Shown here: in pieces, positions 44,301 through 62,205 of the stretch
Layout: the number at the start of each line of letters is the position of its first letter
Position numbering within the stretch: position 1 is the first letter of the stretch
Source: Planctomycetota bacterium
Lineage (GTDB): Bacteria > Planctomycetota > UBA8108 > SXIK01
Length of the DNA: 64,000 nucleotides
NCBI GenBank assembly: GCA_965223265.1
Contig: OZ244999.1
Location: 96,001-160,000 of the forward strand
Direction of reading: 5' to 3'
Position numbers and translations under genes: made by a program
The notes under the pieces: model-generated
What the model saw: the letters and a program-made list of their open reading frames with translations, nothing else
Database searches by the model: none
Told to the model about the DNA's origin: nothing

Positions 44301-44913
44301 CCGGCGCGCGCACCGGCACAAAACTCCACCAGTCGCGCCGTTCATCGAACAGCGCTTGCCAATGCTGTGCCGCCAGGAGCTTGGGATCGGGCGGGTGGTC
44401 GCGCGGATCGGGTGCGCCCAGTTCGACCCAGCGCACGAAGTCACGGATGATGCGATCGGGTAGCTTTTTTTTCGGCGGCATCTCGAGGCCGCTGTGCTTG
44501 ATCGCATCGACGAGCAGGCTCCTAGAAGCGTCGCCCGGAACGACCGCCGGCCCGGAGTCTCCGCCGTGGCGGACGCCATCGCGACTGTCGAGTCGTAACC
44601 CACCCTTGGGCGTGGCGGCCGCGGAGGAGTGGCACTCGTAGCACTCAGCGATCAGAACTGGGCGGATCTTCTTCTCGAAGAAGTCCTCCGGATTTTCTAA
44701 GTGACGATCTCTGGGATTCTTCAATAAGTATTCCAGCGGAGACGCCACAGAGATCTCCCAAACACAAACACACAATAGACACGCAATCGATGCGTGTTTA
44801 TGAAACTTCGGAGGAGAAGATGATGAGAAAAACAAACTGACTCCTGAGTTGCGCCATTCGGCGTATCTTGCCTTCCAGAACATTAGACAGCGGTGCACGA
44901 ATCGCAACAACAA
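41383..44913 (-). CDS. Planctomycete cytochrome c + DUF1549 + DUF1553 protein; N-terminus upstream of DFFEK apparently element-derived
   Basis: DFFEKKIRPVLIAECYECH, FGERWARHWMD, CSRCHDHKLDP, PSHPELLDHLA. The 76 residues before DFFEK lie in AT-richer DNA and partly overlap an antisense integrase-related ORF. Confidence 0.85.
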   Translation of the reverse strand: MLLRFVHRCLMFWKARYAEWRNSGVSLFFSSSSPPKFHKHASIACLLCVCVWEISVASPLEYLLKNPRDRHLENPEDFFEKKIRPVLIAECYECHSSAAATPKGGLRLDSRDGVRHGGDSGPAVVPGDASRSLLVDAIKHSGLEMPPKKKLPDRIIRDFVRWVELGAPDPRDHPPDPKLLAAQHWQALFDERRDWWSFVPVRAPDTPAVKDTTWPAGSIDRYILARLEAHELSPAQQADPRTLARRLAFALTGLPPSPDHVDEFLSDPSPRGWSRLVDELLASPHFGERWARHWMDVVRYTDTYGYEWDIAAKGAWRYRDYLVRAFNADVPIDELFREQIAGDLLENPRTLGSEFNESLIGPMFFQLGENRHGDSSEFNGVHQEMIDNKIDAFSKAFQALTVSCSRCHDHKLDPISQNEYYALAGVFMSSRWITSTLDLPGQHATQLRELQDLKARIQPLIAELWLADATKFAKHLVRVGAPPPSSTDNATDDRDERGKAWARLSDSLDRDALAKLEHPLHTWFELTKAAAEGADIATAWRHIAQRYEDASHKRVSANAENFELIADFRHGIPDSWSVDGVGVRDRVACGDFVVATNGGEVISRLLPGGFSTDALSPRMNGAVRTPRLDMYDRARISFETAGGDFAAHRTVIDNAFLTEKQKYLKADEPTWISLATRPDEQERHVYIEFATKASNPNFPPRVGLGDKCSEDQAADPRSWFGLTRVVVHDVDAQPQDELARFKSLFAAAAPTTLEQAAERYADWLVAALKSWRAGEASPDDVRLINWLLRSDLLTNRIVVGSNDAGEQAKEKTREADKIKQLVESYRTAEQALSTPATVNGMLEHDPGYDYRLNIRGDYDQLGEAVPRGYLRVLSASTLATNTRSSGRRELAEALVSPDNPLTARVFVNRVWHWLFGTGIVSTPNNFGRLGDAPSHPELLDHLAARFVDEGWSLKGLVRTIVTSRTWRQSGQATQKALAADPYNRLVSHYPLRRLEAESIRDAMLATSGRLDRRLHGSPLQPFREKEDPTKRLFAGPLDGRGRRSLYTKVTIMEPAKFLAAFNQPDPKIPTGRRDVTSTVAQSLALLNSHFVTDQARTWAERVVADGKREVAVRLQEMFLRAVGRPASTAELKRWSAMVQDLAAGHKVAAEDVMSSIAVWKEIAHSFYNLKEFIHIR
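44671..44710. other. Putative attachment site, copy 1 (inside the cytochrome c/DUF1553 gene)
   Basis: CTTCTCGAAGAAGTCC-tccggattttctaa-GTGACGATCT; 34/40 identical to 62029-62068. Confidence 0.7.
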
Positions 44914-45556
44914 GGATTTTGACGACTACGGCGGCCGAGGGATCGAATGCGCGCTCTCGCAGGAGGAATTCGCCGATCTCTACTTCCGGACGGATTGCTG
45001 CGAGCTCTGCGGAACTCTGCTGAACGACGAGAACCGAAAGAAAGCGGACGGACGAACGATCGACCGGATCGACCACGACGGTGACTACTCGAGCGAGAAC
45101 GTTCGCGTCATCTGTCGCTCGTGCGGCAGGCGGAACGGGAAGATCCCGGCACGTCGGACGGCGAACGGGAAGCGCAAGGTCAACGGCAAGGCCAACGGCA
45201 ACGGCTGTCTCCCGACTCCGTTCCAGAAGAACGACGGGAAGTGGTACTGCCACTACCAAGGGACGCAGCACTACCTCGGAGAGAACCCCGACGAGAAGAT
45301 CCGGAAGCTCGTTGCCGGTGAGACGATCACGAACGGGGACCGGACGCTCTTGTCGACCGTCGTCGAGATGTACCTCGCCCACGTAGAGCCGATCCAGTCT
45401 CCCGATTCGGTCGCCAACAAGCGGAGGACGTACAGGCGGCTCGTCGAGGACGTCGGGAACATCCCGATTCGGGATGTCACGATCGAGCGTCTCGAGAAGT
45501 ACCGCAACGGTCCGTCTCGTGCTCTTCGCTCGAGATGTTCTTGCAAGCGGCGGTAG
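44820..45556 (+). pseudogene. HNH-endonuclease-like domain fused to the N-terminal (arm/core-binding) half of a tyrosine integrase; catalytic domain lost
   Basis: RQRCTN..YGGRGI..CELC..TIDRIDHDGDY...CRSC, then FQKNDGKWYCHY...YRN homologous to 62184-63191. Homology stops at 45508. GGAGGAG + ATG at 44820 is one base out of frame at an A5 run; the in-frame ORF starts at 44849. Confidence 0.75.
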
Positions 45557-45710
45557 AAATCAAGTGGCAAGCACAGGCACGGACGGCAGTTGAATCTCAT
45601 GCTCGCCGCGCGCACGATCAGCCTACCGCTCGGACTTGGGATGTGGTACTTTGCGTTCCCGGGACAAGCTGATCCACGGATCAGAAGATCCATGCTCGGA
45701 GGCGTACGCT

Positions 45711-46307
45711 ATGGTGAAGAGAAAAACGCCAGCGGCGAGTACGCGAAAGTCCACTGCTCTCGAAAGGCTCCAGCCCGCAGAGTCCGAAGAGGTTCTCGGA
45801 GCCTTTCTGAAAGCGCACCCAGAACTCCGGAAAGAAGCCGAGGAGATCGCGCGTTCGCTGATCTCGGACGTGTCGTTCGACGAGGTCGCCGAAAAGGTGG
45901 AGTGGGAGCTCGAGTCGCACGATCTCGACGAGCTGAACTCCAGGGCGGGAAAGACTCGCTGGGGTTACACCGACCCCACCGACGCGGCCCACGAGATCCT
46001 TCACGAGGCGATCGATCCGATCATCGAGGAGATGAAACGGCACCTCGAGCTGGGGCTCGAGCGAGAGGCGCTCGAGATGTGCAAGGGTCTCGTGCTGGGG
46101 CGATACGGGGTTCGCGACAAGAAGAACGATGGTTGCCTCGGTTGGGCAGGCGACTTCTGCTGGCAGACCGCAGAGGAAGTCCTGGAGAAGTGGTCGAAGG
46201 GGATTCGAGGGAAGGGGAGGAACGGAAGGAGCGCCAGACTGCGTTCGTTCCTCGACGAACTCGCTCCCGAGTGGATCTCGACGTTCGAACGTGTTCTGTC
46301 GAAGTGA
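45711..46307 (+). CDS. Hypothetical protein (acidic, helical)
   Basis: GGAGG RBS before ATG at 45711; protein-like composition; RAGKTRWGYTDP motif. Confidence 0.65.
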   Translation: MVKRKTPAASTRKSTALERLQPAESEEVLGAFLKAHPELRKEAEEIARSLISDVSFDEVAEKVEWELESHDLDELNSRAGKTRWGYTDPTDAAHEILHEAIDPIIEEMKRHLELGLEREALEMCKGLVLGRYGVRDKKNDGCLGWAGDFCWQTAEEVLEKWSKGIRGKGRNGRSARLRSFLDELAPEWISTFERVLSK

Positions 46308-46311
46308 CGTC

Positions 46312-46390
46312 ATGATTCGGAAGAAACCAGACCCCATCGAGCGCTCGATGGAGATTGCCCTGCGACCAGGGCGGTTCATCAGATACGCGG
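46312..46390 (+). pseudogene. 5' fragment of a hypothetical gene truncated at a deletion junction
   Basis: MIRKKPDPIERSMEIALRPGRFIRY starts 4 bp after the previous stop, then runs into the antisense strand of the deacylase fragment. Confidence 0.4.
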
Positions 46391-46939
46391 ATCCTGCTCG
46401 ACCACCACAGGAAAGCCCGTTGTTTCGGCCAGGCTCAATACACGTGCCCGGATGGCTTCGTCCTTTTCGGGCTTGCCAGGCGGATCGAGGAGCGTGTACG
46501 GAATCGAGCGAATCCAGTCGTTGTGCAGGTCGAGCACGACTTCGGGTTTGGTCTCTACGATCGCGCCGAAGATCTTCGACGCGATTCGTTCCGCCAGGGT
46601 ACCCGTCGGGTTGCCAGGAAACGATCGATTGAGATCTTCCTTGCTGAATGTCACATGCCGCGCGGCCATCTCGAAGCCGATCGGATTCATGAGCGGAAAC
46701 GCGTGCAGCGTGCCTCTCAAGAGCGGGGACTTGCGAAGCTGCTTGAAGACTTCCTGTACGACCACGATCCCGCCGACTTCGTCGCCGTGGGAGCAGGCGG
46801 TGAGCCAAACCGTCGGACCACGACGCTGGCTCCTGGCCTCCATGTACGGGATCCGCCTTGGAGACAAGTCGGAGCCGCTCAAAATCTTGAGGAGCGAATA
46901 GCGAAATCGCGTTCGGTCCTGGTCAATGCTCCGTGGCAT
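46379..46939 (-). pseudogene. Succinylglutamate desuccinylase/aspartoacylase family, C-terminally truncated
   Basis: ACSHGDEVGG, DLNRSFPG and LDLHND are present, but the ORF is only 186 aa and lacks the catalytic Glu region and C-terminal domain seen in 37673-38668. Confidence 0.75.
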
Positions 46940-47106
46940 GTCCGAGCGCGAGACCGCCGATCACGTCGACGGCACGATGTCGCAGCCGGAGCCACACACC
47001 GGTCCGGGGCGTCGTCTCGGCCTGCTAAGACGTCCCGCCTCTTCGCTCACTCGGGAGTCGCGTCGCCCGTCTTTGGACGACGGAGAGGCGGGACGTAGAT
47101 TCCTTT

Positions 47107-47214
47107 CTACCCGGCCGCTTTGGCTTTCTCCTTCCGCTTCGGCCGGCGCGGGGTCTTCTTGGCCTTGGAATCTTCCGTCGCGCTCGCCTTTTTGGGGCCT
47201 TTCTTTCGCGGCAT
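47107..47214 (-). CDS. Small Lys/Arg-rich protein (35 aa)
   Basis: MPRKKGPKKASATEDSKAKKTPRRPKRKEKAKAAG. Strong GAGGAGG RBS 8 nt upstream; lies just downstream of a sigma-54 promoter. Confidence 0.5.
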   Translation of the reverse strand: MPRKKGPKKASATEDSKAKKTPRRPKRKEKAKAAG

Positions 47215-47284
47215 TGAACCGTCCTCCTCAAGTAACGCCTTCAAGACTCGCTCTGAGACCATCCCAGAGCTCGTCGAGGGAGCA

Positions 47285-47301
47285 AGCACAGCGTGTGCCA
47301 A
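47285..47301 (-). promoter_or_regulatory. Sigma-54 (-24/-12) promoter
   Basis: Minus strand TTGGCACACGCTGTGCT: GG-N10-GC with TGGCAC. Confidence 0.7.
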
Positions 47302-47368
47302 TGCGGCGTGCGCGATCGCGATTCTGCGTCCCTGGGCTGCGCCCCCGAAAAGTTGACGCCCGTGATGC

Positions 47369-48805
47369 TCAGTACTTGAAGTGGTTCTTGTCCAGGTCGT
47401 GCTTCTTGAGCTTGTCGAACAAGTTTCGTGTCGTCATTCCGGCGCGCTTTGCCGCCTCACCGACACGGCCACCGCTGATCCGAAGCAACTCGGCGAAGTA
47501 CTCCTTCTCGAAGGCGTCGACGACCTCGCTCTTCGCCTCGGCGAACGGTCGGGTTGCCAGCTCTGCTGCCGGTCGAGGCCCGACGGGAGCCGCGTTCACT
47601 GTCTCGCCAGAACCGGCCGTTCGCTCAGAGCCGTTCAGCCAGACAGGCAGGTCGTTCGGTTTCACGGCACTCCCTCTGGAAAGAAGCATCGAACGTTCGA
47701 CGACGTTGACGAGCTCCCTGATGTTGCCTGGCCACGCGTACTGCTCCATGGCGTGGAGTGCCGCGTCGGAGAAGTGCTGCACCTTGGTCGCCATGCGTCC
47801 CTGAAAGTAGCGCGTGTACGTGGCGACGAGCCCACGGATGTCTTCCTTGCGCTCGCTAAGTGGCGGGACCTCCAGCGTGACGACTCCGAGTCGGTAGTAG
47901 AGATCCTCCCGGAACGTCTTCGCCGTCACGAGCTCCCGTAGCTCACGGTTCGTCGCCGACATGACTCTGACGTCAATTGCGATGGAGCGTTCTGCGCCGA
48001 CTGGCGTCACCTCTCGGTCCTGAAGCACGCGCAGGAGCCGAGACTGAAGGTGGAGCGGCATTTCGCCGATTTCGTCGAGGAATACCGTTCCGCGGTGTGC
48101 GAGCTCGAACCAGCCGCGGCGTGTCGTCGTGGCTCCCGTGAAGGAACCTCGCGCGTGGCCGAAGAGCTCGCTCTCGAGGAGGCTCTCCGGAAGCGCACCG
48201 CAGTTAACCGCCACGAAAGGTCCCTTTGCTCGCGAACTCGCCTGGTGAATCGCTCGAGCCAACCGTTCCTTGCCGACGCCAGTCTCGCCGGTGATGAGGA
48301 GTGTCGAGTCGCTATCGACCACACGCTCCACGACTGACATGAACGCCTGCATCGTGGCGCTCGTCGTCACGAAGTCGCTCAGTTTCGGAGTGTCGATCTC
48401 GCGCTCGAGGAGCAACTCATCGGAACGCTCCTGACGAACCCGGGCAAGAATCCCCTCGAGCGCTTGCGACAAGAGATCGTCGTCTAGGGAAAGGTCGAGA
48501 TGAGCGACGGCACCTGCGGCGACAATCCGCGCATCGTCGTCCGAGTCCTGCTGGGCGCTCAGGACCGCGAGTCGCGGCGCGCCCGGGACGTCGCTCAACA
48601 TAGCCACACTCTGAGGGGCCGGCTTGGGAACGAGCGCACGACTTACAAGGACTATGTCACCGGCATACTGGGCGAGCCGACCCCACAGCGGTTGCTTGCT
48701 CTTTCGAATCGTTTCGACAAACGTGTCGGGCTGCGGACGAAGAAGCCCTCGCAACCGCTTTGTTGTATCGCCGTCCTCGGCACAGATGAGCACTCGTAGA
48801 AGCAT
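47369..48805 (-). CDS. Sigma-54-dependent transcriptional activator (NtrC/Fis family) with degenerate receiver domain
   Basis: [46 protein letters not shown]-terminal HTH. The receiver-like N-terminus reads DIVLVS where the phospho-Asp is expected. Confidence 0.92.
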
Positions 48806-48955
48806 TGCAAATCGTCACTCGCGGCCTGGCAGTCCGGAAGAATTATCTCCGAAAAATCAGAAGTCGCAAGGATGTGCTCTCATCTCGCGATCGCAGCCCC
48901 GCATAACCTATTTAAAAACAGTCAATTACGGCTTTCCCCGTGACGCCGCTCGCTT

Positions 48956-48971
48956 TGGCGTACGAAGTGCT
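48956..48971 (+). promoter_or_regulatory. Sigma-54 (-24/-12) promoter for glnA
   Basis: TGGCGTACGAAGTGCT (GG-N10-GC), about 35 bp before the ATG. AT-rich tract at 48903-48928 upstream. Confidence 0.65.
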
Positions 48972-49006
48972 TGGGGCTCCTCCAAGTGCTGAGGAGTCTT
49001 ACGCCC

Positions 49007-51199
<2,193 letters not shown>

Positions 51200-51202
51200 G
51201 CG

Positions 51203-51236
51203 GCGAGGCGGTCCGCCGAAGCGGTCACGGCCTCGC
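51203..51236. terminator. GC-rich hairpin after glnA (no U-tract; terminator role uncertain)
   Basis: GCGAGGC...CCGC-CGAA-GCGG...GCCTCGC. Confidence 0.35.
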
Positions 51237-51342
51237 TAAAAAGCGGAAGTTTACCTTCTTATAAAGCGGAGCTGCTGGGCGCCACCCCGACCAGCAAGCC
51301 ACAAGGTGTTTTATGTGAGCCAGTTACGAATCCGGATTGGTG

Positions 51343-51358
51343 TGGCGCCACGTTTGCT
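51343..51358 (+). promoter_or_regulatory. Sigma-54 (-24/-12) promoter for the CBS-hsp20-groESL-ligase-ptsP cluster
   Basis: TGGCGCCACGTTTGCT: near-consensus TGGCRC-N5-TTGC. Confidence 0.75.
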
Positions 51359-51422
51359 AAACGTTCGCACGTCGACCTTCTGTCGAGTGACGGACAGTGC
51401 CGGAAAACTATGGTACTCAGCC

Positions 51423-51536
51423 ATGACAAAGACACCCGAGCAACCCAAGCCGGAGCCTGTACCGCCGCCGACCCAGGAGGACGGTGACGAGAAGCCGAGA
51501 CCCAGGCCCGGACCACGGCCTCGTCCCGCCGGTTGA
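51423..51536 (+). CDS. Small proline-rich peptide (37 aa)
   Basis: MTKTPEQPKPEPVPPPTQEDGDEKPRPRPGPRPRPAG. First ORF after the sigma-54 promoter; weak RBS. Confidence 0.35.
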   Translation: MTKTPEQPKPEPVPPPTQEDGDEKPRPRPGPRPRPAG

Positions 51537-51599
51537 TCGAAGAACTGAAACCTCGTCCATAGATGAGGCGATTGTAGGCAGGTCACAAGGAGGTAGCCG

Positions 51600-52076
51600 A
51601 TGAAAGTCGAGAGCGTAATGACGAAGGACCCACGCACGTGCTGTCGGACGGACACCCTGAACGTGGCAGCAAAGATCTTCTGGGAGCAAGATTGTGGGTG
51701 CGTGCCCGTGGTCGACCCAGAAGGCAGGGCGATCGGTGTGCTCACCGATCGTGACGTTTGCATCGCGGCCTACACTCAGGGCCGTCCACTGAGTGAGATC
51801 TCTGTGGAAACCGCCATGAGCCGCGAGCTCTTCGCGTGTGCCCCTGGCGACACGCTCGAGCAGGTCCAGGAGACTCTTCGAGATCGGCGAATTCGTCGGC
51901 TCCCTGTTGTCGACGACGATGGCCGGTTGGTCGGGATCGTGTCTCTCAACGACATCGCACGAGAAGCCAGCCGCCAGCGAGAAGGCCGCAAGAGGGATGT
52001 CAGCGAGCGGGAACTCGGAAGAACGCTGGCCGCTCTCTGTGAGAGTACGGGCCGCGAGCTCACGGCAGTCGCCTGA
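51600..52076 (+). CDS. CBS domain pair protein
   Basis: VESVMT, GCVPVVD..GVLTDRD, IRRLPVVD..LVGIVSLND. AAGGAGG RBS. Confidence 0.9.
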   Translation: MKVESVMTKDPRTCCRTDTLNVAAKIFWEQDCGCVPVVDPEGRAIGVLTDRDVCIAAYTQGRPLSEISVETAMSRELFACAPGDTLEQVQETLRDRRIRRLPVVDDDGRLVGIVSLNDIAREASRQREGRKRDVSERELGRTLAALCESTGRELTAVA

Positions 52077-52099
52077 GCATTTCGAAAGGAGTGTTACAG

Positions 52100-52537: not shown

Positions 52538-52579
52538 CGTCGGGATCTCTGTGCCCGGTGCCTGGAGGTGATTTAACAA

Positions 52580-52879: not shown

Positions 52880-52925
52880 CATCAGAAGAAGTGAGCGCTC
52901 CATACCGTAGGAGCGAACCATAGCC

Positions 52926-54536: not shown

Positions 54537-54572
54537 ACGGGCTCCCCCAGGAGCAATGGAAGGAAATAACCG

Positions 54573-55151
54573 GTGCCGACTGAAGGTGTATTGACAACGT
54601 CTCAGTGGGGCCTGGCACTGGCCATATTCGCACTGCGAATCATCGACGTCTCTGTCGGAACGGTTCGTACACTTGCGGTTGTCCAAGGCAAAGTGAAGGC
54701 CTCGGTGATCTTGGGATTCTTCGAGGTTCTTGTCTGGCTGGTGGCGGTTTCCCACGTTCTCGGACAGGTAACCGCGAACCCTATCCTGATGTTCGTCTAC
54801 TGCGCCGGATTCGCCGGTGGCAACGCGGTAGGAATCGTTCTCGAGAAGAAGCTCGCCCTCGGCGGCGTCGTTCTCCGAGTGATCTCTACCGCAGATCGAG
54901 ACCAGATGCTTCGATGCCTGTACGAGCAGGCGGCACGCGTCACGACGTTCGAGGGGGCGGACAGCGGAACTCCGGTGACGCTGTTCTATGTCGTCTGCCG
55001 ACGTAGAATCCTGCGCGCTCTGCTTGACCAGGCTCGCCAACTTGACCCCGAGCTCTTCTTCGCAGTCGAACCTCTGAGGGAAAGCAGTCTGGAGCTGACT
55101 CAGCCTCTCCCCCGCGCTACCGGCTGGCGATCATTACGCAAGGCGAAGTGA
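54573..55151 (+). CDS. DUF2179/DUF5698 (UPF0316-like) membrane protein
   Basis: IFALRIIDVSVGTVRT, GFFEVLVW, YCAGFAGGNAVG, C-terminal soluble domain (VTTFEG...DPELFF). Confidence 0.8.
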   Translation: MPTEGVLTTSQWGLALAIFALRIIDVSVGTVRTLAVVQGKVKASVILGFFEVLVWLVAVSHVLGQVTANPILMFVYCAGFAGGNAVGIVLEKKLALGGVVLRVISTADRDQMLRCLYEQAARVTTFEGADSGTPVTLFYVVCRRRILRALLDQARQLDPELFFAVEPLRESSLELTQPLPRATGWRSLRKAK

Positions 55152-55158
55152 CGTAGAA

Positions 55159-57129
55159 ATGAAGAAGAACCTGGAGCGCGGTCGTGAAACCAAGCCATCA
55201 GCGAAAAACGGCGGACGGACGATAGGGCCGGTTTCGGACCTCGAGCGTCATTTGCCGTCCGATTGGTGGCGGACGCTCTTCAACTCCATCTACTTGAAAA
55301 CCGATGGAGATGTGATCGAGAACACTGCGAACACGAAACGCGAAGTGGATGCCGTGATTCGAGCGGCCGGACTCGAGGTGAACGACCGGATCCTGGACCT
55401 CTGCTGCGGTCAGGGAAGACACTGCCTGGAGCTCGCCCGGCGAGGCTTCGCGCATGTTACTGGCGTGGATCGATCGCGCTACCTCATTCAACTCGCTCGG
55501 AAACGTGCGAAAGACGAAGGCCTTTCGGTAGTTTTTCGCGAGCGTGACGCTCGGAAGCTCCGCCTGCGTGAGACGCCGTTTCACTGCGTTACCCTACTTG
55601 GAAACTCCTTCGGGTATTTCGATACAGAAGACGACGATCGACGGCTGCTCGAAAGCGTCAAGAACGCTCTTCATGGTGGCGGGATCCTGGTCCTCGACAT
55701 CGCCGACGGAGAGTGGCTCAGGACGCACTTCGCGCCGCGCTCGTGGGAGTGGATCGATCAGAACCACTTCGTCTGCCGTGAGCGATCTCTGGCAGCCGAC
55801 GGGACACGCCTGATCTCGCGGGAGGTCGTCGTGCACGCCGAACGTGGCGTGATCGCAGACCAGTTCTACGCGGAGCGACTCTATCCCAAGGAACGGCTCA
55901 ACGGGCTTCTGGAGTCCGTGGGTTTCGCGGATCTGCGTGATCATGGCTTTCTCTTTCCCCAATCGGAGCGTAACCAAGATCTCGGGATGATGGCGCAGCG
56001 CTACCTGCTCACGGCACAGGCGCCGCGGATCGTTCAGACGTCAACGAGAGCGGGTCCTCGCTACACTGAAGTTGCAGTACTTCTCGGTGATCCTCGGCTT
56101 CCGGACCGCGTCAAGCGTGAGGGACAATTCAATGAGGAAGACTTCGAGACGCTCCGCAAGCTGAAGGATGCCCTCGGTGAACTCGACGAGTACAGATTCG
56201 AGTACCTGGACAATCATGCGTCTCTGATCACCCAGTTGCGCGGCTGTCGACCAGAGTTTGTCTTCAACCTCTGTGACGAGGGTTTCGACAACGACGCCTT
56301 CAAGGAACTCCACGTTCCTGCCGTACTCGAAATGCTCGACATTCCCTATAGCGGTGCCGGCCCCGCTTGTCTCGCCATCTGCTACGACAAGTCACTTGTT
56401 CGCGCGTTTGCCGAGTCGCTGGACATCCCTGTGCCGCTCGAGTCGTACTACAACGTGGATGACCACGCGGCGACCTTGCCTTCCGTATTTCCCGCGTTGG
56501 TCAAGCCCAACTACGGCGACTCGAGCATCGGGATTACGAAGGACGCGGTCGTGAGGTCTCCGGAGCAGCTCGTGGCTTACCTCGAGAAACTGCAGGACGA
56601 GCTCCCGAGCCGCTCGATCCTCATTCAGGAGTTTCTTAGCGGACCAGAGTACAGTGTAGCAGTCATCGGCAACCCGGGGAACGAGCTGACGATCCTTCCA
56701 CCGCTCGAGGTCGATTACAGCGGATTGTCCAGCGGGCTGCCGGCGATTCTCGGATACGAATCGAAGTGGATGCCGGAGTCTCCGTACTGGAGCGAGATCC
56801 GTTACCACGAGGCGCGGATCGACGAGGACGCTCGACGCCAGCTTGGCGACTACTCCCTGCGCCTTTTTGAGCGACTGGGCTGTCGGGACTACGCTCGTTT
56901 CGATTTTCGTGCCGACTCCGCTGGCGTGATCAAACTTCTTGAGGTGAACCCGAACCCCGGCTGGTGCTGGGACGGCAAGCTGAACTTCATGGCGGGCTAC
57001 GCGGGGATGCGATACTCGGAATTGCTCCGAGGCGTGCTCGAAGCGGCTCAGGAGCGGATCGCCAATGGAGCGCCTCGGCGGGAAGTCCCTTGTCAAGGCA
57101 TCCCACTCACGGCCACCAGCTGCGAGTGA
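55159..57129 (+). CDS. Fusion of class I SAM methyltransferase and D-Ala-D-Ala-ligase-like ATP-grasp domain
   Basis: ILDLCCGQGRH, GNSFGYF; then VFNLCDEG, IPYSG, LVKPNYGDSSIGI, IQEFLSGPEY, DYARFDFR, LEVNPNPG. Confidence 0.88.
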   Translation: MKKNLERGRETKPSAKNGGRTIGPVSDLERHLPSDWWRTLFNSIYLKTDGDVIENTANTKREVDAVIRAAGLEVNDRILDLCCGQGRHCLELARRGFAHVTGVDRSRYLIQLARKRAKDEGLSVVFRERDARKLRLRETPFHCVTLLGNSFGYFDTEDDDRRLLESVKNALHGGGILVLDIADGEWLRTHFAPRSWEWIDQNHFVCRERSLAADGTRLISREVVVHAERGVIADQFYAERLYPKERLNGLLESVGFADLRDHGFLFPQSERNQDLGMMAQRYLLTAQAPRIVQTSTRAGPRYTEVAVLLGDPRLPDRVKREGQFNEEDFETLRKLKDALGELDEYRFEYLDNHASLITQLRGCRPEFVFNLCDEGFDNDAFKELHVPAVLEMLDIPYSGAGPACLAICYDKSLVRAFAESLDIPVPLESYYNVDDHAATLPSVFPALVKPNYGDSSIGITKDAVVRSPEQLVAYLEKLQDELPSRSILIQEFLSGPEYSVAVIGNPGNELTILPPLEVDYSGLSSGLPAILGYESKWMPESPYWSEIRYHEARIDEDARRQLGDYSLRLFERLGCRDYARFDFRADSAGVIKLLEVNPNPGWCWDGKLNFMAGYAGMRYSELLRGVLEAAQERIANGAPRREVPCQGIPLTATSCE

Positions 57130-57136
57130 GTGTCAG

Positions 57137-59473
57137 GTGAAAACGCGTCGCACGACGAACATCCCGCACGCGCTTTCGGAGATTCTGACGAGCACGACGT
57201 CGCTCGCGCAGATTCTCGAGGCAACGGTAGGTATCGTGGCGGAGCAACTTCGCGCCGACGTGTGCTCGATCTATCTTTTGGACCTCTTCAGTGGCCGACT
57301 TCGCCTGGTCGCCTCCAGAGGTTTCAAGGAGGGGGCCCTCGGTCGAGTCTCCCTGGGACCCGACGAAGGCATCACGGGCACTGTCGTCTCCACAATGTCC
57401 TCGATCGCTTCCGAGGACGCCAAGGAGCATCCCTCCTACCGTTACTTTCCGGCCACCGGAGAGGAGGAGTTCTCCGCCTACCTCGGGGCTCCATTGAGCG
57501 TGGGAAGGCGACCCGTCGGAGCGATTGTGCTGAGGAACCGGGAGCGGCGAAGCTACACCGAGTACCAGAAGAAGACGCTTCAGACGGTAGCGGCGCAGTT
57601 GGTCGGAGTCATCGAAAACGCACGACTCGTCGAGGCGCTCGATCAGCCCGATGGCGGGAGAGCCTACTTTGAGGAGCTGCACAAGTGGAACCGCGGTCTT
57701 CGCGAGTATCGCCCGACTCAGGATGGGCACGGGGAGGTGATTCTACGCGGAACCGCTGGTTCCCATGGAGTGGCCATCGGAAAGGCTGTCGTGCGGGGAT
57801 CATCGGATCCCACCTCCGAGCTCCACATGTCACCCGAATCTGCTGAAGAGGAACGACAACGCCTCGGGGTTGCGATTGAAAGAACTGGCAGTGACCTCGC
57901 TCACATCCATGCTGCAGCCGAACGTGAAACCGGCGAAGAGCACGCGCTTATCTTCTCTGCGCATCTCCTTATCTTGAGTGATCCCACGCTGCGAGGACGA
58001 ATCGAGGCCTTGATCGACGACGGGCTGTCTGCCACGCAGGCAGCGCACCGAGTGTTTGCCGACGTCGAGGCGCAACTGCGTGGTCTCGGAGACCCCTATC
58101 TCAAGGAGCGGGCTGAGGACATCCTCGATCTGCGTGCGAGGCTTTTGGGACATCTGACCGACCCGGCGACGAGGACTCAGGATTTGAGCGACCGGATCGT
58201 CGCTGCGGAGCGGCTTTCGCCTTCGATGATCATTGAACTCCGCGCCGAGGGAGTGCTCGGAGTTGCGACCGAACGCGGTGGAGACACCTCGCACGGGGCG
58301 CTCCTGGCTCGCGCCATGGGAGTGCCGGCCGTCACGGCCGTTCCTGAGTTGATGCGGAACGTTCTTCCCGGAGACGATCTCATTCTCGATGGCTCCACCG
58401 GCACTGTGATTGTAAGGCCGCAGCCGGAGACGTTGAGCAAGTATCAGGAGAAAGCACGGCGGTGCGTCGCGTCGGCTGAAAGGCTCGCAGGCATTTCGCA
58501 GAGTCCGGCCCAATCACTCGACGGCCGCAGCGTGAAGTTACTTGCAAACGTAGGGTTGGCCGCAGAAATCGACGAAGTAGCCGGGCGAGGCGCCCAAGGG
58601 ATCGGACTCTATCGGACCGAGTTCCTCTTCCTGGGACGGACCGACCACCCGACCTCGGAAGAGCAGACTCGCGTCTACCGTGCCGCCTGTGATTGCGTGC
58701 CCGACGGTCCGATCTACTTTCGTCTCCTCGACGTCGGAGGGGATAAGTGGTACGCCCGGTTGACGTTAGCAGGAGAGGCGAACCCTGCGCTCGGCTACCG
58801 ATCGGTTCGACTGCTGCTTGACGCGCCATGCGTCTTCAAGGAGCAGGTAGAAGCCGTCCTTAGAGCCGCTGGGGAACGCGAGGTCGGGATCATCGTCCCC
58901 CTCGTTACGGACCTCGAAGAGGCTCGTAGGGCGAAGACCCTCATTCGCGAGGTACACGATTATCTCTCTGAGTCCGAAGCGGACCCCGTAACTATGCCGC
59001 GAATCGGCATCATGATCGAAGTGCCGGCGGCGGCCGAGATCGCTTCGCACCTGGCAGAGGAGGCCGACTTCTTGTCGCTGGGAACGAACGACCTCGTCCA
59101 GTTTACACTCGCCGCGGACCGGGAGAACGCTCGAGTGGCGCACCGTGGTACTCCCTTCCATCCTGGCGTTCTGAGCTTGGTCCGCCGGACGATCGACGCC
59201 GGACGATCCGTTGGGAAGCCAGTCGGGTGTTGCGGCGAGCTGGCCGCGGTTCCCGAACTTGCGATCTTGCTTCTCGCCATGGGCGTCGACTACCTGAGTC
59301 TCGCTCCAGTGTCGATCCCCAGAGTCAAGCTGGCTATTCAGCACAACGACATCGGAAAGCTCGAAGCCCGCCTGGATGAGATATTGGCGCTGCCCGAGGC
59401 GTCACTCGTGGAGAACATGCTACGTGAGGCGGTGGTCAAGCCGAGATGGAAGGAGGGCCGTCGCCTGGAGTGA
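57137..59473 (+). CDS. ptsP: GAF-domain phosphoenolpyruvate-protein phosphotransferase (Enzyme I-Ntr-like)
   Basis: N-terminal GAF (ADVCSIYL...HPSYRYFPATGEEEF). Phospho-His TSHGA, GIGLYRTEFLF, EANPALGYRS, MIEVP, GTNDLVQF, CGELA. Confidence 0.9.
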   Translation: MKTRRTTNIPHALSEILTSTTSLAQILEATVGIVAEQLRADVCSIYLLDLFSGRLRLVASRGFKEGALGRVSLGPDEGITGTVVSTMSSIASEDAKEHPSYRYFPATGEEEFSAYLGAPLSVGRRPVGAIVLRNRERRSYTEYQKKTLQTVAAQLVGVIENARLVEALDQPDGGRAYFEELHKWNRGLREYRPTQDGHGEVILRGTAGSHGVAIGKAVVRGSSDPTSELHMSPESAEEERQRLGVAIERTGSDLAHIHAAAERETGEEHALIFSAHLLILSDPTLRGRIEALIDDGLSATQAAHRVFADVEAQLRGLGDPYLKERAEDILDLRARLLGHLTDPATRTQDLSDRIVAAERLSPSMIIELRAEGVLGVATERGGDTSHGALLARAMGVPAVTAVPELMRNVLPGDDLILDGSTGTVIVRPQPETLSKYQEKARRCVASAERLAGISQSPAQSLDGRSVKLLANVGLAAEIDEVAGRGAQGIGLYRTEFLFLGRTDHPTSEEQTRVYRAACDCVPDGPIYFRLLDVGGDKWYARLTLAGEANPALGYRSVRLLLDAPCVFKEQVEAVLRAAGEREVGIIVPLVTDLEEARRAKTLIREVHDYLSESEADPVTMPRIGIMIEVPAAAEIASHLAEEADFLSLGTNDLVQFTLAADRENARVAHRGTPFHPGVLSLVRRTIDAGRSVGKPVGCCGELAAVPELAILLLAMGVDYLSLAPVSIPRVKLAIQHNDIGKLEARLDEILALPEASLVENMLREAVVKPRWKEGRRLE

Positions 59474-59568
59474 CTCCCTATTCGGTGTGGAACTCCCGAA
59501 CTCCATTTAACGGCCTCCGTCGGCCTCCGTGAAGCGAGTTCTCTATGAGGAGGAAGTTTGGGGGTCAG

Positions 59569-61086
59569 TCATTCTTCACTCGTCCTCATCCTCTCCTCGT
59601 CTTCCATATCTACAGCTTCAGCAGCAAGCGTGACGAGGTCATCGCCGCTGAGTTCGTGCTCCGTAGAACGTTGGGTTCTGCGGAAGCGAAAGCCACGATA
59701 CAGACCGACCGGAAAGCGTAGCACTCGTAGCGGGGTGGCGCCAATGAGTTGCGTCATGACGTGGGGCGTCCCGTGCGCCTCTGGTTCCTGAATCCGCAAC
59801 GCGTAGACCACGCTGATCAACCGCAAGGCGAGGCTGGTAGCGAAGAGAAGCTCGAAGTTTCCAACCGTGGCCGTTCCGAGTTGCACCTGCCAGGAAGCGG
59901 TGGCTACGAGCGCCGCTCCCGCCAGAATCGAGGCAACTCCGCCGACCATGCCTGCCAGGGCGGTTCCGGCGGCGATGTACATCGTGCGGTTTACTGAAGG
60001 AGATTTCTTCAACATAAATCCATTCGAGGCAATGGCAATGCCCGCGTTGAGCCCAGAGTCGACAAGAAAGACGAGAGCGAGCAAACAGAAGGCGAATTCA
60101 AGATTCGAGGGGAGAAAGAGCAACGCGATCATGTTTGTCGACTTGAGTGAGGTACAGAGAACCAGGACGGGACGATTGCCGTACTTTTCGGCCGCTCGTC
60201 CGAGAGGGACTGCAACCAGTGCGCCGCCGGCCCAGCAGAACGTCCATAGCAACAGTAGGTGGAAGAGACTCAGACCGACCTCGGACAAGAGGTACAAACT
60301 GATGAACGGTGCTCCGATCATCGCAGCGAAGTTCCAGAAACACGCGTACGAGATGAACGTGCGAAAGCCGGACTCTTTGAACGGAGCGCTGAACACACGT
60401 ATCAAGCTTGGCTCTGGTACGGGCTGAACCGTTGGCTCCTCGATTTTGAGGAAAAAGAGGAGGTCTCCGACACCGAAGATCGCACCGACCCCGATCAGAA
60501 CGGCAAAGGCTGTGTGAGTATCGACTCCACTCTTGTGGACGAAAAACGCGCCTGCCAAGAGAGACAGCGCCCCCGCCCACTGCATCCACCGCTGTCGTAC
60601 TCCCCAGTAACTATTGAGTCCTGCGTGAGGAAGGTAATCCCCCATCCAGGAGAGCCAGAGCGGGGAGCCGAAGTGGAGAAGAGCATGGTTTACCGCAGTG
60701 GTGGCGACGAGCAACAACAACCAGGTCGCGTGTACCACGTCCGGGAACAAGAGCGGTCCAAGAGCGGCCGGCACGAGAATCAACCGCTGTACGATTGACA
60801 CGGCCAACCAGAGGGGACGACGGTACCGTAGGTGGTTGGCGACAACCGCGGCGACGAACTGCATGAACACCATTGCCGTGGGCAGAGCGCCAAGGAGGCC
60901 GATGTGGAAGGCGCTGGCATCCAGGGAACGGGCGAATTCTATGGTGGCCGGCGACATCGTCAGCTGTGTGTAAACCATCGACATGCAGCCGGCGATAATG
61001 ATGGCCCGTTTCGCAGTAGGAAGTGACCACATGATGGCACGTTCTCTCCAGGCAACCCTGCTCTTTGGCAATCCCAGGCGGAGCAT
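59569..61086 (-). CDS. MFS transporter
   Basis: About 12 hydrophobic helices, WLSWMGDYLP, GRAAEKYGNRPVL loop motif. True start may be 61032. Confidence 0.85.
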   Translation of the reverse strand: MLRLGLPKSRVAWRERAIMWSLPTAKRAIIIAGCMSMVYTQLTMSPATIEFARSLDASAFHIGLLGALPTAMVFMQFVAAVVANHLRYRRPLWLAVSIVQRLILVPAALGPLLFPDVVHATWLLLLVATTAVNHALLHFGSPLWLSWMGDYLPHAGLNSYWGVRQRWMQWAGALSLLAGAFFVHKSGVDTHTAFAVLIGVGAIFGVGDLLFFLKIEEPTVQPVPEPSLIRVFSAPFKESGFRTFISYACFWNFAAMIGAPFISLYLLSEVGLSLFHLLLLWTFCWAGGALVAVPLGRAAEKYGNRPVLVLCTSLKSTNMIALLFLPSNLEFAFCLLALVFLVDSGLNAGIAIASNGFMLKKSPSVNRTMYIAAGTALAGMVGGVASILAGAALVATASWQVQLGTATVGNFELLFATSLALRLISVVYALRIQEPEAHGTPHVMTQLIGATPLRVLRFPVGLYRGFRFRRTQRSTEHELSGDDLVTLAAEAVDMEDEERMRTSEE

Positions 61087-61295
61087 AGAATACGTCCCGC
61101 CGCTTCGAGCGGCCAGTCTTTCGTTTCATCGGGTATTCCGGGGTTCTTGATGAGATGAGGGCCTCGATCTCCGTCCCCACCGCCCAGTGGATTTGTGCCG
61201 AAGGCTCAGAGACAATTGGAAGGTGTCAGTGCGCGTGCGGTCGCTCACGTGGCTGGACGTGCCCACGAGAAGGAGTGGTAGTCGACAGATTCTAA

Positions 61296-61665
61296 ATGAA
61301 CACTGAGCAAGAAGATCTCAACCGGTTTCATATCGCTCGGCAGCAGTTGGATCGCGCCGTCCAGTTCCTTCCGGACTTCAAGAAAGGACTGATCGATTTC
61401 CTGAAGTCGCCGGCGCGCAGTATCACTCTCTGCTTTCCCGTCGAGATGGACGACGGATTCGGTGCAGACCTTTACGGGGTATCGCGTCCTTCACAGCCGG
61501 ATCCGTGGACCGGGAAAAGGAGGCATCCGGTATCACCCTGACGTCAGCGCGGACGAAGTGCGCGCTCTGGCGAGTTGGATGACGTGGAAATGTGCGCTCG
61601 TCGACGTTCCGTTCGGTGGTGCAAAGGGCGGTGTTGTCCGTGACCCGAAGGAGCTCAGCGAGACG
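61296..61665 (+). pseudogene. Glu/Leu/Phe/Val dehydrogenase (GdhA-like) 5' fragment, frameshifted and truncated
   Basis: FPVEMDDG, then a one-base insertion near 61458, then [23 protein letters not shown]...[23 protein letters not shown]. Homology ends near 61665. Confidence 0.85.
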
Positions 61666-61692
61666 TCGAGATCCACGCCCGACCGGTTGCTC

Positions 61693-62034
61693 CGACTTCT
61701 CCCACCACCTCCTCACTCCGAACGCCATATCGAAAGAGAAACCGCGGGTAATCGCCGGTTTCTGATCTGGAGCTCCAGCGTCCGTGAAAAACGCGTTTCA
61801 GATCGAAAGGTGCCAGGATGCTAGAGACGTTTTTACTAACGCGAGGCCGAGAGGACCGAGATCGAGATTCTGAATCTCACCCGTTGATCTGTCTGCCGAA
61901 TCTGAAGACAGTGCCTTTGTCAACTGCCGCGGCGGAAACGAAAAGGTATCGACTTCTCCCAGAAGGTGATCCCTCGATCCGTAACTCCGCGTATCCCGCG
62001 GAGAAAGGATCCGTCAGAAAGGTATCGACTTCTC
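61693..62034 (+). repeat. Direct repeats next to the second att-like site
   Basis: AAAGGTATCGACTTCTC at 61942-61958 and 62018-62034; CGACTTCTCCCA at 61693-61704 and 61950-61961. Confidence 0.8.
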
Positions 62035-62205
62035 GAAGAAGTCCACCTCGTTTTGTACGTGACGATCTTTCGGAGAGTTAGATAGATCGGAGAGAGGAGA
62101 AGTTGTCCCCTCGAGTACAGAAAACAGCGGACAAAGTTTCGCTTTGAGGACAACCAAAGCGGACAAACAGAGGAGAACCAAGAATGAAGAAGTCACCGAA
62201 GGCAT
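62014..62205 (-). other. Short signal-peptide-like ORF reading in frame into DFFEK (candidate replacement 5' gene end)
   Basis: MPSVTSSFLVLLCLSALVVLKAKLCPLFSVLEG...PKDRHVQNEVDFFEK-SIPF*; compare PRDRHLENPEDFFEK-KIRPVL at 44671-44713. Confidence 0.45.
62029..62068. other. Putative attachment site, copy 2
   Basis: CTTCTCGAAGAAGTCC-acctcgttttgtac-GTGACGATCT. The core overlaps the dyad GACTTCT-CGA-AGAAGTC (62027-62043). Confidence 0.7.

Follow-up and report, generated by a model that had tools for sequence, protein, structure and literature searches.

Phage 21 and the element e14 integrate within icd of E. coli, where attP carries the displaced 3′ end of the gene and the coding frame is intact after integration. 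At the other end of a gene, islands and prophages with dusA-specific integrases (DAI) replace the 5′ end of their target with new island sequence (Farrugia et al., 2015; PMC4482086). The window analysed in this work, a stretch of 64,000 nucleotides from a Planctomycetota bacterium, contains a locus for which a related behaviour is proposed. With a probability of roughly 80%, a family of integrases inserts at the DFFEK codons of cytochrome genes, displaces their signal peptide and supplies an in-frame leader carried by the element.

The locus is marked by a 40-bp site, found at 44671-44710 and 62029-62068, whose two copies align over 16 identical, 8 of 14 and 10 identical bases. The repeat reported in the initial annotation was confirmed by this alignment and by a search of the 9.18-Mb genome, in which the pattern occurs at three places with at most three mismatches and a reversed control pattern at none. 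Exact copies of the 16-bp core are also three in number, at g140671 (window 44671), g158029 (window 62029) and g185657. Read on the minus strand (G-GAC-TTC-TTC-GAG-AAG), the core encodes DFFEK, and the in-phase frames described on the integrase side were reproduced, with 76 open codons at site 1 and 54 from an ATG at site 2, ending in DRHLENPE-DFFEK and DRHVQNEV-DFFEK, respectively. At 44671..44686 the core (CTTCTCGAAGAAGTCC on the plus strand) forms the boundary between a PSCyt-specific and an element-specific flank, and flank identity changes exactly at the core in every copy compared. A family of Xer-like tyrosine integrases uses the 40-bp site as its att site, and the bases that differ at the edges of the core confine the crossover to 7-11 bp.

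At 44671-44686, an attL interrupts a PSCyt1/DUF1549/DUF1553 gene. The body of this gene (41383..44685, minus strand) begins with the D of DFFEK and runs intact for 1100 codons, free of internal stops, and matches the Pfam domains PSCyt1, PSCyt2 (DUF1549) and PSD1 (DUF1553), all near full length. Downstream lies a DUF1501 partner gene (39901..41373, minus strand; PF07394, E 1.4e-126), which is syntenic with its orthologue in the related genome G012 (79% amino acid identity). The native start of the split gene, an ATG and a signal peptide in frame with DFFEK, is located about 45 kb away, adjoining the third exact core at g185657. There, the right flank reads MRASVSWSPILIALYLAAQTGVANDSAVDSGSM-DFFEK in frame on the minus strand and the native leader runs as DFFEK-SIPL-stop into the P arm of the element. 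The end of the element, initially placed at 62205, is 25.7 kb past the end of the window. The closest uninterrupted orthologue, G012:C11 (61% identity over 1098 amino acids, 69% over the first 350), reads CGTATCGACTTCTTCGAGAAGAAGATCC at the equivalent place, an ordinary signal-peptide-like leader passing directly into RIDFFEKK. The native leader of this first island (island 1) showed no significant similarity to the leader of the G012 orthologue, nor the upstream side of the island any synteny with G012, and both observations weigh against the proposal. The junction at 44686 was bridged without difference by contigs of four sequencing runs (one study, at most two samples).

An integrase had been annotated at both sites. 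At site 2 it is intact, a Xer-like tyrosine integrase of 335 amino acids (62184..63191, plus strand; PF00589, E 5.6e-34), whereas at site 1 only a truncated and frameshifted pseudogene of the long form persists (44823..45556, plus strand), in which a Cys-rich N-terminal extension is followed by integrase residues 5-106. The ORF of this remnant (44849-45556) is 62% identical to the intact integrase over residues 5-103 (tblastn), with the frameshift at codon 5, and the pseudogene is collinear with the 456-aa P0003 and with P0025. Relative to site 3, one A is missing from the run at 44834-44836; this A is present in a contig of run X4. The intact integrase, which is presumably still active, has 32 homologues, the closest with 93%, 83% and 71% identity. 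A PSCyt1-like motif was found at none of the six loci of relatives with 44-62% identity, a result that counts against the proposal. Its best-scoring NCBIfam families are XerC/XerD (TIGR02224 and TIGR02225, 119-121 bits) and the integron integrase (TIGR02249, 83 bits), far below the curated cut-offs of 335, 330 and 265 bits; it scores below every NCBIfam equivalog cut-off.

Site 2 itself had been taken for a second cytochrome target. The minus-strand frame there stops four codons past DFFEK (DFFEK-SIPF-stop) and the left flank holds no cytochrome gene, and the site is read here as an internal attP-like junction from a second element inserted in tandem. Its core (62029..62044) forms, with the left flank, the 17-bp perfect palindrome GACTTCT-TCG-AGAAGTC. 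The conserved, non-coding P arm, named X (61650..62028, plus strand), carries a CTCCGCG...CGCGGAG hairpin and a second core-like inverted repeat (61942-61965) 76 bp upstream of the core. Its counterpart at g185500-185673 matches it at 86% identity over 175 bp. The genome has five full copies of the arm, each ending at the core, and no Rfam family was matched. On the other side, the P′ arm of the second element (62045..62205, minus strand) includes a conserved 10-mer (GTGACGATCT, 62059-62068) and the 54-codon frame, which begins with the ATG at 62205-62203, overlaps the integrase start by 22 bp and reads MPSVTSSFLVLLCLSALVVLKAK...DRHVQNEV-DFFEK. The first cargo gene of the second element encodes an AAA-type ATPase of 771 amino acids (63580..64000, plus strand; Pfam AAA, E 7.8e-10), whose full ORF, g159580-161895, runs off the window, and a stray C-terminal integrase fragment is found at g161929-162255.

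Comparable junctions exist at other loci. In island 2, a paralogue at g5906768 bears the element leader and the native leader stands 18.7 kb upstream, at g5887997, joined to an X arm (MKERVRVLPLVTVVCLLAQPATTG...NRI-DFFEK-SIPF-stop). The cores of this island read CTTTTCGAAGAAGTCC at attL and CTTCTCGAAGAAGTCG at attR, and their two edge differences segregate, as predicted by a crossover inside the core; no recombinase was found in island 2. At G012:C124, attL (about 2390) and attR (3874-3890) are separated by about 1.5 kb, the native leader reads ...TLAVTPSLLGAPGVDRDPVDRFEK-STPF-stop, and the only segment common to both junctions is TTCGAGA. The third DFFEK paralogue of the genome under study, g4230468, is uninterrupted. 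DFFEK is encoded at only 3 of its 63 PSCyt1-like sites, two of these three being occupied, and therefore the many landing sites proposed in the initial annotation exist across genomes and not within this one. Both split genes of this genome retain the three domains and the DUF1501 partner, and the adjacent integrases are truncated or deleted. Five leader-bearing PSCyt genes were readable as DNA (two in this genome, two in G001, one in G012); all five retain, next to the leader, part of the 5′ end of the integrase, and three have a matching far junction with a native leader in frame with the FEK codons.

How the DNA between the junctions arrived is a separate question. The cargo of the first, decayed element (45557..61649) comprises, according to Pfam, unnamed ORFs together with a sigma-54 activator, glutamine synthetase III, a CBS protein, Cpn60, a methyltransferase/ATP-grasp fusion, a GAF-PtsP-like enzyme and an MFS transporter. 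The cargo overall resembles ordinary planctomycete genes (glutamine synthetase III, Cpn60, PtsP, desaturases, a DEAD-box helicase, cytochrome P460 and an ECF sigma factor with kinase), and its G+C content is not distinct. With such cargo, and with no recombinase in island 2, en-bloc mobility of the large islands is no more than conjectural. A tentative alternative, which deserves real weight, denies that the 45-kb and 18.7-kb stretches each moved as one island. Small integrase elements would have inserted first, and the DNA now lying between attL and attR would have come later, either accreting at the att sites or through rearrangement by the integrase between dispersed att copies. The ordinary cargo and its G+C content, the internal att junction at 62029, the stray integrase fragment, the length of only about 1.5 kb in the G012 example and an attR-like junction in G001 that lies 1.5-3.5 Mb from the leader-bearing genes all agree with such a history. 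Against it, several cargo genes are second copies, with 70-74% nucleotide identity elsewhere in the genome (70% for glutamine synthetase III), as expected of acquired DNA, and the methyltransferase/ATP-grasp fusion has no full-length match in five relatives. This alternative bears on how the islands arose and agrees equally with insertion at DFFEK and leader replacement.

The element-borne leader (44686..44835, minus strand) consists of 50 codons in frame with DFFEK, starting with the TTG at 44835-44833 and comprising a basic n-region, the hydrophobic core ASIACLLCVCVW and ISVASP. It is present on at least 12 different PSCyt genes. The leaders are 47-96% identical versus 41-63% for the gene bodies beneath them, and a leader-bearing body resembles other such bodies no more than it does PSCyt genes whose leader is native (42-57%). 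In an 11-residue window, Kyte-Doolittle hydropathy peaks at 2.8 in the element leaders and at 2.0-2.9 in the native ones. A short (I/V)CLL motif is common to both kinds of leader. The leader region shares its DNA with the integrase 5′ end and probably with integrase-binding sites, a further source of constraint on the sequence. Candidate expression signals precede the leader (44841..44907, minus strand), namely TTGCGA (44907-44902), a 16-nt spacer, TAATGT (44885-44880) and a Shine-Dalgarno-like AGGAG (44845-44841) 5 nt ahead of the TTG. GTTGCGAT and CTAATG are invariant in all five leader copies, and homology stops just upstream in three or four of them. A sigma-70 consensus scan returned no promoter passing its criteria at either site, TTGCGA/TAATGT included. 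The promoter-like motifs may act as promoters, the leader would be translated and export the protein, and its sequence conservation suggests that the replacement N-terminus is functional.

An unlikely reading, though one to be weighed, is that integration is real and the leader inert. The insertion would inactivate the cytochrome gene, and the open frame would be a by-product of constraints on the P′ arm (the integrase promoter, binding sites and the integrase 5′ codons on the opposite strand). The five DNA copies argue otherwise. Their leader frame is free of stops and frameshifts, every other frame being stopped in at least one copy, and the TTG is kept in all five. Their leaders are 47-72% identical (blastp; the G012_C124/G001_b pair gave no alignment), with lengths of 147, 150, 150, 150 and 153 nt that differ by whole codons, and the P0034 leader has an insertion of one codon. 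The dN/dS values, 0.08-0.67, are below 1 in 10 of 10 pairs. Between sites 1 and 3, differences at codon positions 1, 2 and 3 number 9, 8 and 13, a weak skew. In a permutation test of these two sites, 14 or fewer amino acid differences were obtained with P = 0.048 (overall range 0.03-0.05), modest values that, like the lack of a consensus promoter and the overlap with the integrase start, favour an inert leader. In the site 2 leader a basic n-region is lacking and KAK follows the hydrophobic stretch, an atypical charge layout, unfavourable in topology for a signal peptide, that points the same way. Less easily reconciled with inertness, a module reaching from some 70 bp ahead of the TTG as far as the core is retained where the remaining integrase is lost, and the split bodies keep every domain and are intact over 1100 and about 800 codons.

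It is very improbable that one PSCyt subfamily natively begins with this leader, the integrase merely lying upstream and no gene being split. The leader-bearing genes do come from three genomes of one order and share (I/V)CLL with native leaders, but this candidate was rejected because at three far junctions another in-frame start with a signal peptide leads into the FEK codons and on into the X arm, because leader identity reaches 96% in gene pairs whose bodies are 44-45% identical, and because the gene body most similar to that of site 1 (69%) lacks an element leader. Antisense frames are often open in G+C-rich DNA, but chance is scarcely credible given the genome-wide pattern count, the flanks that switch at the core and the comparative evidence.

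At the level of DNA comparison, split genes, in-frame native leaders at far junctions, segregating flank differences and the spread of the leader over unrelated bodies are demonstrable. The main interpretation of the initial annotation, integration into the PSCyt motif with a leader of the element's own, is supported by the stranded native leaders and by the leader's presence on many genes. It also withstood the three refuting comparisons named in the initial annotation: the uninterrupted G012:C11 lacks the N-terminus encoded at 44687-44913, integrase remnants and far junctions adjoin the leaders, and the leader frames are unbroken. In the proposed mechanism, attP would consist of the P arm X (about 200-300 bp), the palindromic core and a P′ arm of about 140 bp abutting the integrase start. 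The chromosomal target would be the (I)DFFEK(K) codons where the PSCyt1 cytochrome c domain of PSCyt1/DUF1549/DUF1553 genes begins, and strands would be exchanged within 7-11 bp at the centre of the core (TTCGAGA / GACTTCTTCGA). Integration would separate the signal peptide of the gene from its mature part. In the attL product the body would be fused in frame to the 50-codon P′-arm leader, with promoter-like and Shine-Dalgarno-like motifs ahead, and the attR product, at g185657 beyond the window, would leave the gene's own promoter and signal peptide stranded before DFFEK-SIPL-stop. Site 62029 would derive from the second element, with its intact integrase, inserting in tandem at the attR of the first.

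As in phage 21 and e14, attP here appears to supply the displaced gene end and to leave the coding frame intact. In contrast to these elements, which carry a near-identical copy of a 3′ end, the 5′ end is replaced by a leader without detectable similarity to the native one, and this leader brings its own start codon and a candidate promoter. Like the dif site of XerC/XerD, the core is a short palindrome, and, as in integron integrase systems, unrelated cassettes are separated by X-core modules, here in a second genome region. Unlike in both systems, the integrase is element-borne and adjoins its own att site; neither an attC-like structure nor an attI, as in integrons, is present here. A close parallel is with the DAI (PMC4482086), in which a tyrosine integrase also lies at the island end beside the target, insertion is in the 5′ part of a protein-coding gene, the original 5′ end marks the outer island boundary, and retained function was likewise argued from sequence. 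However, dusA is a once-per-genome tRNA-modification gene whose replaced part is a TIM-barrel beta strand, whereas here the motif is common to paralogues of an expanded family and the replaced part is a signal peptide. Also unlike the DAI, the leader module persists on its dozen or more genes, often after integrase decay, and the integrase is Xer-like, with a short form and a long form bearing the Cys-rich extension. The initial annotation knew of no described system with this target. Replacement of a 5′ end by an island has a precedent at dusA, against which the novelty lies in the choice of target, in the spread across paralogues and in the exchange of a signal peptide.

The initial annotation had proposed that an element integrates into the DFFEK codons of cytochrome c genes and supplies a replacement N-terminus; the observation proved real, and this mechanism was supported with corrections. 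The two 40-bp sites, at window positions 44671 (site 1) and 62029 (site 2), were confirmed as 16 identical bases, 8 matches out of 14 and a further 10 identical bases. Searching the 9.18-Mb genome with the 40-bp pattern, allowing up to 3 mismatches, returned 3 places, against none for a reversed control pattern. On the minus strand, the 16-bp core reads G-GAC-TTC-TTC-GAG-AAG, and on the integrase side frames in phase with it stay open over 76 and 54 codons, as described. The left flank of site 1 is indeed a PSCyt1/DUF1549/DUF1553 gene (hereafter PSCyt gene), followed by a DUF1501 gene. A related integrase had been reported beside each site; the one at 62184-63191 is intact, but site 1 keeps only residues 5-103. 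The stretch between 44.7 and 62.0 kb contains ordinary-looking genes (a sigma-54 activator, glutamine synthetase III, a CBS protein, Cpn60, a methyltransferase/ATP-grasp fusion, a PtsP-like enzyme and an MFS transporter), so that the two sites are not simply the ends of one small element.

The layout became clear from a whole-genome search, which located a third exact copy of the 16-mer at genome position 185657 (genome coordinates are window coordinates plus 96000). Over about 175 bp, the DNA on the left of this core matches that on the left of site 2 at 86% identity. On the right of the core, a typical signal peptide beginning with an ATG runs on the minus strand in frame into DFFEK (MRASVSWSPILIALYLAAQTGVANDSAVDSGSM-DFFEK), and this frame meets a stop four codons into the repeat. 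This signal-peptide start natively belongs to the gene body that ends at window 44685, from which it has been displaced. Taken together, the third core, its X-like left flank and the in-frame native start define an attL at 44671-44686 (gene body, core and P′ arm), an attP-like junction at 62029-62044 (P arm, called X, then core, P′ arm and the intact integrase) and an attR at genome positions 185657-185672 (P arm, core and native leader). The insertion totals 45 kb, and its last 27.6 kb are the element with the intact integrase. Contigs from four sequencing runs (one study, at most two samples), compared over 44001-64000, bridged the site 1 junction; no excision joint was found in them over this stretch, which excludes attR. 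In all four runs, contigs join 62040 back to 61736 (a step back of 305, with a side of 32 letters), a joint that is unreadable as excision and could come from an X-core-X arrangement at another locus or in another organism of the mixed sample. The contigs also contain several long skips, with short sides (20-32 letters) and from the same mixed material. Separately, a C-terminal integrase fragment (genome 161929-162255, locus L043; residues 226-335, 75% identical) sits 2.7 kb downstream of the intact integrase, just past a 771-aa AAA ATPase gene, and points to a further decayed copy, to accretion or to a rearrangement inside the second element.

The same arrangement was found at a second paralogue of the source genome, on the plus strand at genome position 5906768, which carries the same element leader as the window gene. 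Between these two genes, the leader DNA is 83% identical and the conserved N-terminal part of the gene about 70%, and the homology with site 1 stops about 30 codons into the integrase remnant. The native start of this paralogue (MKERVRVLPLVTVVCLLAQPATTG...NRI-DFFEK-SIPF-stop) lies 18.7 kb upstream, joined to the X arm. The cores of this second island read CTTTTCGAAGAAGTCC at attL and CTTCTCGAAGAAGTCG at attR, and their two edge differences segregate as an exchange inside the intervening 11 bp predicts. A third case comes from a relative of another family in the same order (G012), where contig C124 carries a leader-bearing PSCyt gene with its attR only about 1.5 kb away, composed of an X-arm remnant, the core and a native leader (...TLAVTPSLLGAPGVDRDPVDRFEK-STPF-stop; at approximately 3890-3990). 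The sequence common to both junctions of this contig is TTCGAGA only; such a length, 7 bp, is the usual size of the overlap regions of tyrosine recombinases. Thus, the original 5′ end is kept in frame at the far island boundary at three loci (genome positions 185673-185788 and 5887997, and G012 contig C124).

That the window gene had been interrupted was borne out by its closest orthologue, on contig C11 of G012 (61% identical, 1098 residues), which is uninterrupted, reads ...LLAQPGPEDADRI-DFFEKK... and has CGTATCGACTTCTTCGAGAAGAAGATCC at the site; its DUF1501 neighbour is 79% identical. The native leader of island 1 gave no significant match to the leader of this orthologue with blastp-short, and the resemblance between the two (LAAQTG/LLAQPG) is by eye only. 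Upstream of the orthologue, there was no tblastx match to genome positions 120-200 kb besides the gene itself. A regular-expression search indicated that DFFEK is encoded at 3 of the 63 PSCyt1-like motif sites of the source genome; two of the three are occupied, and the remaining paralogue, at 4230468, is uninterrupted. A pattern search for attR-type junctions in five relatives, allowing 2 mismatches, gave 4-13 matches per genome against 1-6 for the control, so mostly noise, and 2 of the 30 loci examined were relevant. In the relative G001 (contig C4, 2907820-2907870; L181, L183), a palindrome of about 25 bp (TATCGACTTCT-CGA-AGAAGTCGATA) makes up an attR-like junction, at which a native-type leader (...ADENRI-DFFEK) is joined to a degenerate P arm. 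The two PSCyt genes of G001 that bear the element leader are 1.5-3.5 Mb away from this junction, a distance that suggests later rearrangement.

At the attachment site, the core and the adjoining P-arm flank form a perfect 17-bp palindrome, GACTTCT-TCG-AGAAGTC, and the P arm, kept over 200-300 bp in five full copies, contains a 7-bp hairpin and, 76 bp upstream, another inverted repeat that resembles the core. The RID codons (CGT ATC GAC) of the native targets mirror GTCGATAC of the P arm, and for this reason the attR junctions are palindromes of about 25 bp. By our reading, the codon string for IDFFEKKI is itself nearly palindromic, and it may mimic the recombinase core and so help the element. 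An alternative in which X would be the primary target, with the cytochrome gene as a secondary one, was rejected, because X is always on the element side and the native leaders lie beyond it. An Rfam search of window 44000-64000, with E values up to 1, gave no matches, so the X arm corresponds to no described RNA.

The element-borne leader was searched for with the first 62 residues of the chimeric protein and then with a profile of five leader sequences. The leader is present on PSCyt proteins from public assemblies (P0033, P0034, P0035, P0038, P0039, P0040 and P0043) and on the two G001 genes (P0042 and P0044), and the leader-bearing genes amount to at least 12 different ones, including two in the source genome and one in G012. 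Leader identity among them is 47-96%, against 41-63% for the bodies (first 350 residues); site 1 and P0033, for example, share 96% of the leader and 45% of the body. The leader-bearing bodies resemble each other no more than they resemble those of PSCyt genes with a native leader, and the leader is absent from the gene whose body is most similar to that of site 1 (69%). This comparison of leader with body identity shows that the leader is a mobile module and no inherited N-terminus. When the profile was compared with 1.84 billion representative proteins, only 3 weak matches were obtained, all of them fragments, in a collection whose 50%-identity representatives may omit the leader.

The five DNA copies of the leader are 147, 150, 150, 150 and 153 nt long and all start with TTG, which follows a purine-rich, GGAG-like motif by a few bases. 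None of the five copies contains a stop in the PSCyt frame, the other five frames are each interrupted by a stop in one copy or more, and all ten pairwise dN/dS values fall between 0.08 and 0.67. A permutation test on the leaders of site 1 and site 3 alone was marginal (P = 0.048; 0.034 with a no-stop requirement). The leader is a candidate Sec-type signal peptide, a type defined by a basic n-region, a hydrophobic h-region of 7-15 residues and small residues at positions -3 and -1. By eye, a basic stretch (KFHKH) is followed by hydrophobic ASIACLLCVCVW and by ISVA/SP; the hydrophobic core has 12 residues with an invariant A-C-L before ISVASP, and its Kyte-Doolittle maximum of 2.8 is like that of native leaders. 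Reading the invariant A-C as a lipobox was rejected, since only 4 residues separate the basic stretch from the cysteine. Upstream of the leader, GTTGCGAT and CTAATG are invariant (TTGCGA, 16 nt and TAATGT in the window), and in three or four of the copies homology ends just beyond these motifs, as though a dead integrase had been eroded by deletions up to the boundary of a promoter that was still required. Scans for sigma-70 promoters and terminators found no promoter-like sites at either site. Both split genes of the source genome are intact, with three domains and DUF1501 partners, and their integrases are truncated or gone. We estimate a chance of about two in three that the leader is a working replacement N-terminus.

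The integrase at 62184-63191 matches the phage integrase family PF00589 over residues 154-324 (117.8 bits, cut-off 27.1; E 5.6e-34). In an alignment of 26 sequences, R193/R194, K218/K221, H284, R287 and H310 are invariant and Y319 is conserved in at least 90%; we take these positions to be the catalytic R, K, H, R, H/W and the tyrosine nucleophile. The protein is Xer-like but falls far short of the equivalog cut-offs for XerD (121.1 bits, cut-off 329.6) and XerC (119.6, 335.15) and of those for integron integrases (TIGR02249, 83.3 bits, cut-off 265; NF011946, 53.9, cut-off 435). In every copy of the source genome, 137-140 bp separate the core from the start of the integrase or of its remnant, and remnants are present at all five leader-bearing loci examined. 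Two forms of the protein exist. The short form, of 335 aa, includes site 2, P0001 (93%) and P0002 (83%). The long form (P0025 and the 456-aa P0003) has a Cys-rich extension of about 120 residues (CxxC...DRIDHD...CxxC) before the integrase, which may be a zinc-ribbon DNA-binding or arm-binding domain; an HNH label was rejected (PF01844 E 0.26, no NCBIfam match). At site 1, integrase residues 5-103 (62% identical) follow such an extension, and the ORF at window 44823-45556 matches the N-terminal half of P0003 and of P0025. One A is lost from a run at codon 5 of this long-form gene, which stops after 235 codons. In run X4, from the second sample of the sequencing study, a contig at depth 9.3 carries an additional A at 44833-44834, which restores the long-integrase frame at codon 5, and T>C at 44821; another contig, in X3 and X4, shows 9 differences over 45150-45280. 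These differences imply a variant strain or copy in that material.

This integrase family is rare, with 32 homologues among 5.8 billion proteins. No match at E 1e-30 or better was found outside the source genome among 400 sampled genomes of the phylum, and a single-protein scan of genome contigs found no relatives. Scans with an alignment returned 45 and 80 loci, of which 6 are close family members (44-62% identical). None of these six loci, all readable as DNA, holds a PSCyt1-like motif or adjoins a PSCyt gene. At one of them (L091), a similar palindrome, TGACTTTTTCCGAAAAAGTCA, precedes the integrase by 128 bp. Window 911-1666 encodes another tyrosine recombinase, which shares about 30% identity with the 62184 integrase, and further weak relatives occur in multi-copy sets in the genome, such as those at 2249264, 3519432 and 3569666, with identical scores.

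Part of the island cargo duplicates genes located elsewhere in the genome at 70-74% nucleotide identity, and one cargo gene is without a full-length match in five relatives. The duplicated genes include a DEAD-box helicase with a fatty-acid desaturase (genome 181927-184508 and 5742141-5744865, 73-74%) and glutamine synthetase III (window 52580-54492 and genome 880095-882026, 70%). The second element carries three desaturases and a DEAD-box helicase, a set that, from general knowledge, recalls cold adaptation. The large islands may move as units; their cargo is ordinary-looking, if partly duplicated elsewhere. Just downstream of a PEPCK gene there are at least three copies of the X arm and the core, with a right arm of about 100 bp in common (genome 4234594, 4239379 and 4253820, within 4234480-4257000; L004, L005), accompanied by fragments at 4243169, 4240793 and 4256745. 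There they separate unrelated genes, among them an AAA_21/AbiEii-like ATPase-methyltransferase, two SduA_C-like proteins and a TOTE-type primase-helicase, and no integrase was found within the region. The region, at 4.234-4.257 Mb, may represent a graveyard of elements in tandem, or else defence cassettes in an integron-like array, in which case the X-core module would possibly be the cassette boundary.

PSCyt genes and the DUF1501 genes paired with them belong to the most expanded families of Planctomycetota, and here a mobile element is specialised on the codons of the one invariant N-terminal motif of the PSCyt family. Its insertion would exchange the signal peptide, and probably the promoter too, and the exchanged 5′ end survives on many genes. 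A bolder reading, offered tentatively and with somewhat more doubt than confidence, is that the P′ arm is a selected portable cassette of promoter, ribosome-binding site and signal peptide, that with every integration a PSCyt-DUF1501 pair receives other signals for expression and export in place of its own, and that the host has kept it as a working 5′ end long after integrase decay, on at least 12 genes in several genera. If so, the element would repeatedly rewire a gene family that is among the largest in planctomycetes. Native and element leaders on paralogous bodies in one genome provide a natural experiment on PSCyt export and regulation, and a compact integrase with a defined attP and an attB of 15-17 bp could become a genetic tool for planctomycetes, where few exist. 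A caution for annotation is that chimeric genes are called with various starts: the public call for the window gene (P0037, 41383-44748, minus strand) begins at an internal GTG (MASPLEY...) and omits the hydrophobic part of the leader, and that for the second paralogue (P0036) begins at the TTG. The stranded native leaders are unannotated and appear in no listed protein.

A full-text literature search, judged on titles and the beginnings of abstracts, gave no report of integration into DUF1553, DUF1549, PSCyt1, PSCyt2 or PSD1 genes, and among the matches listed for planctomycete integrases, attB sites or genomic islands there was likewise none. The nearest known system is that of the dusA-specific integrase islands, in which an integrase adjoins the target, island sequence takes the place of the target's 5′ end and the old 5′ end lies at the far boundary (PMC4482086). 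The islands described here are similar in that the integrase lies at the island end beside the coding body of the target and the original 5′ end is at the far boundary. They supply an in-frame, conserved 5′ end that may keep the gene functional. In contrast to dusA, the target is a PSCyt gene, at the motif that starts the cytochrome c domain in this expanded family of paralogues, and it is a signal peptide that is replaced; one module is found on many paralogues and orthologues, and decayed copies persist. These islands extend the dusA type of 5′-end replacement to a target that is a protein motif common to several paralogues.
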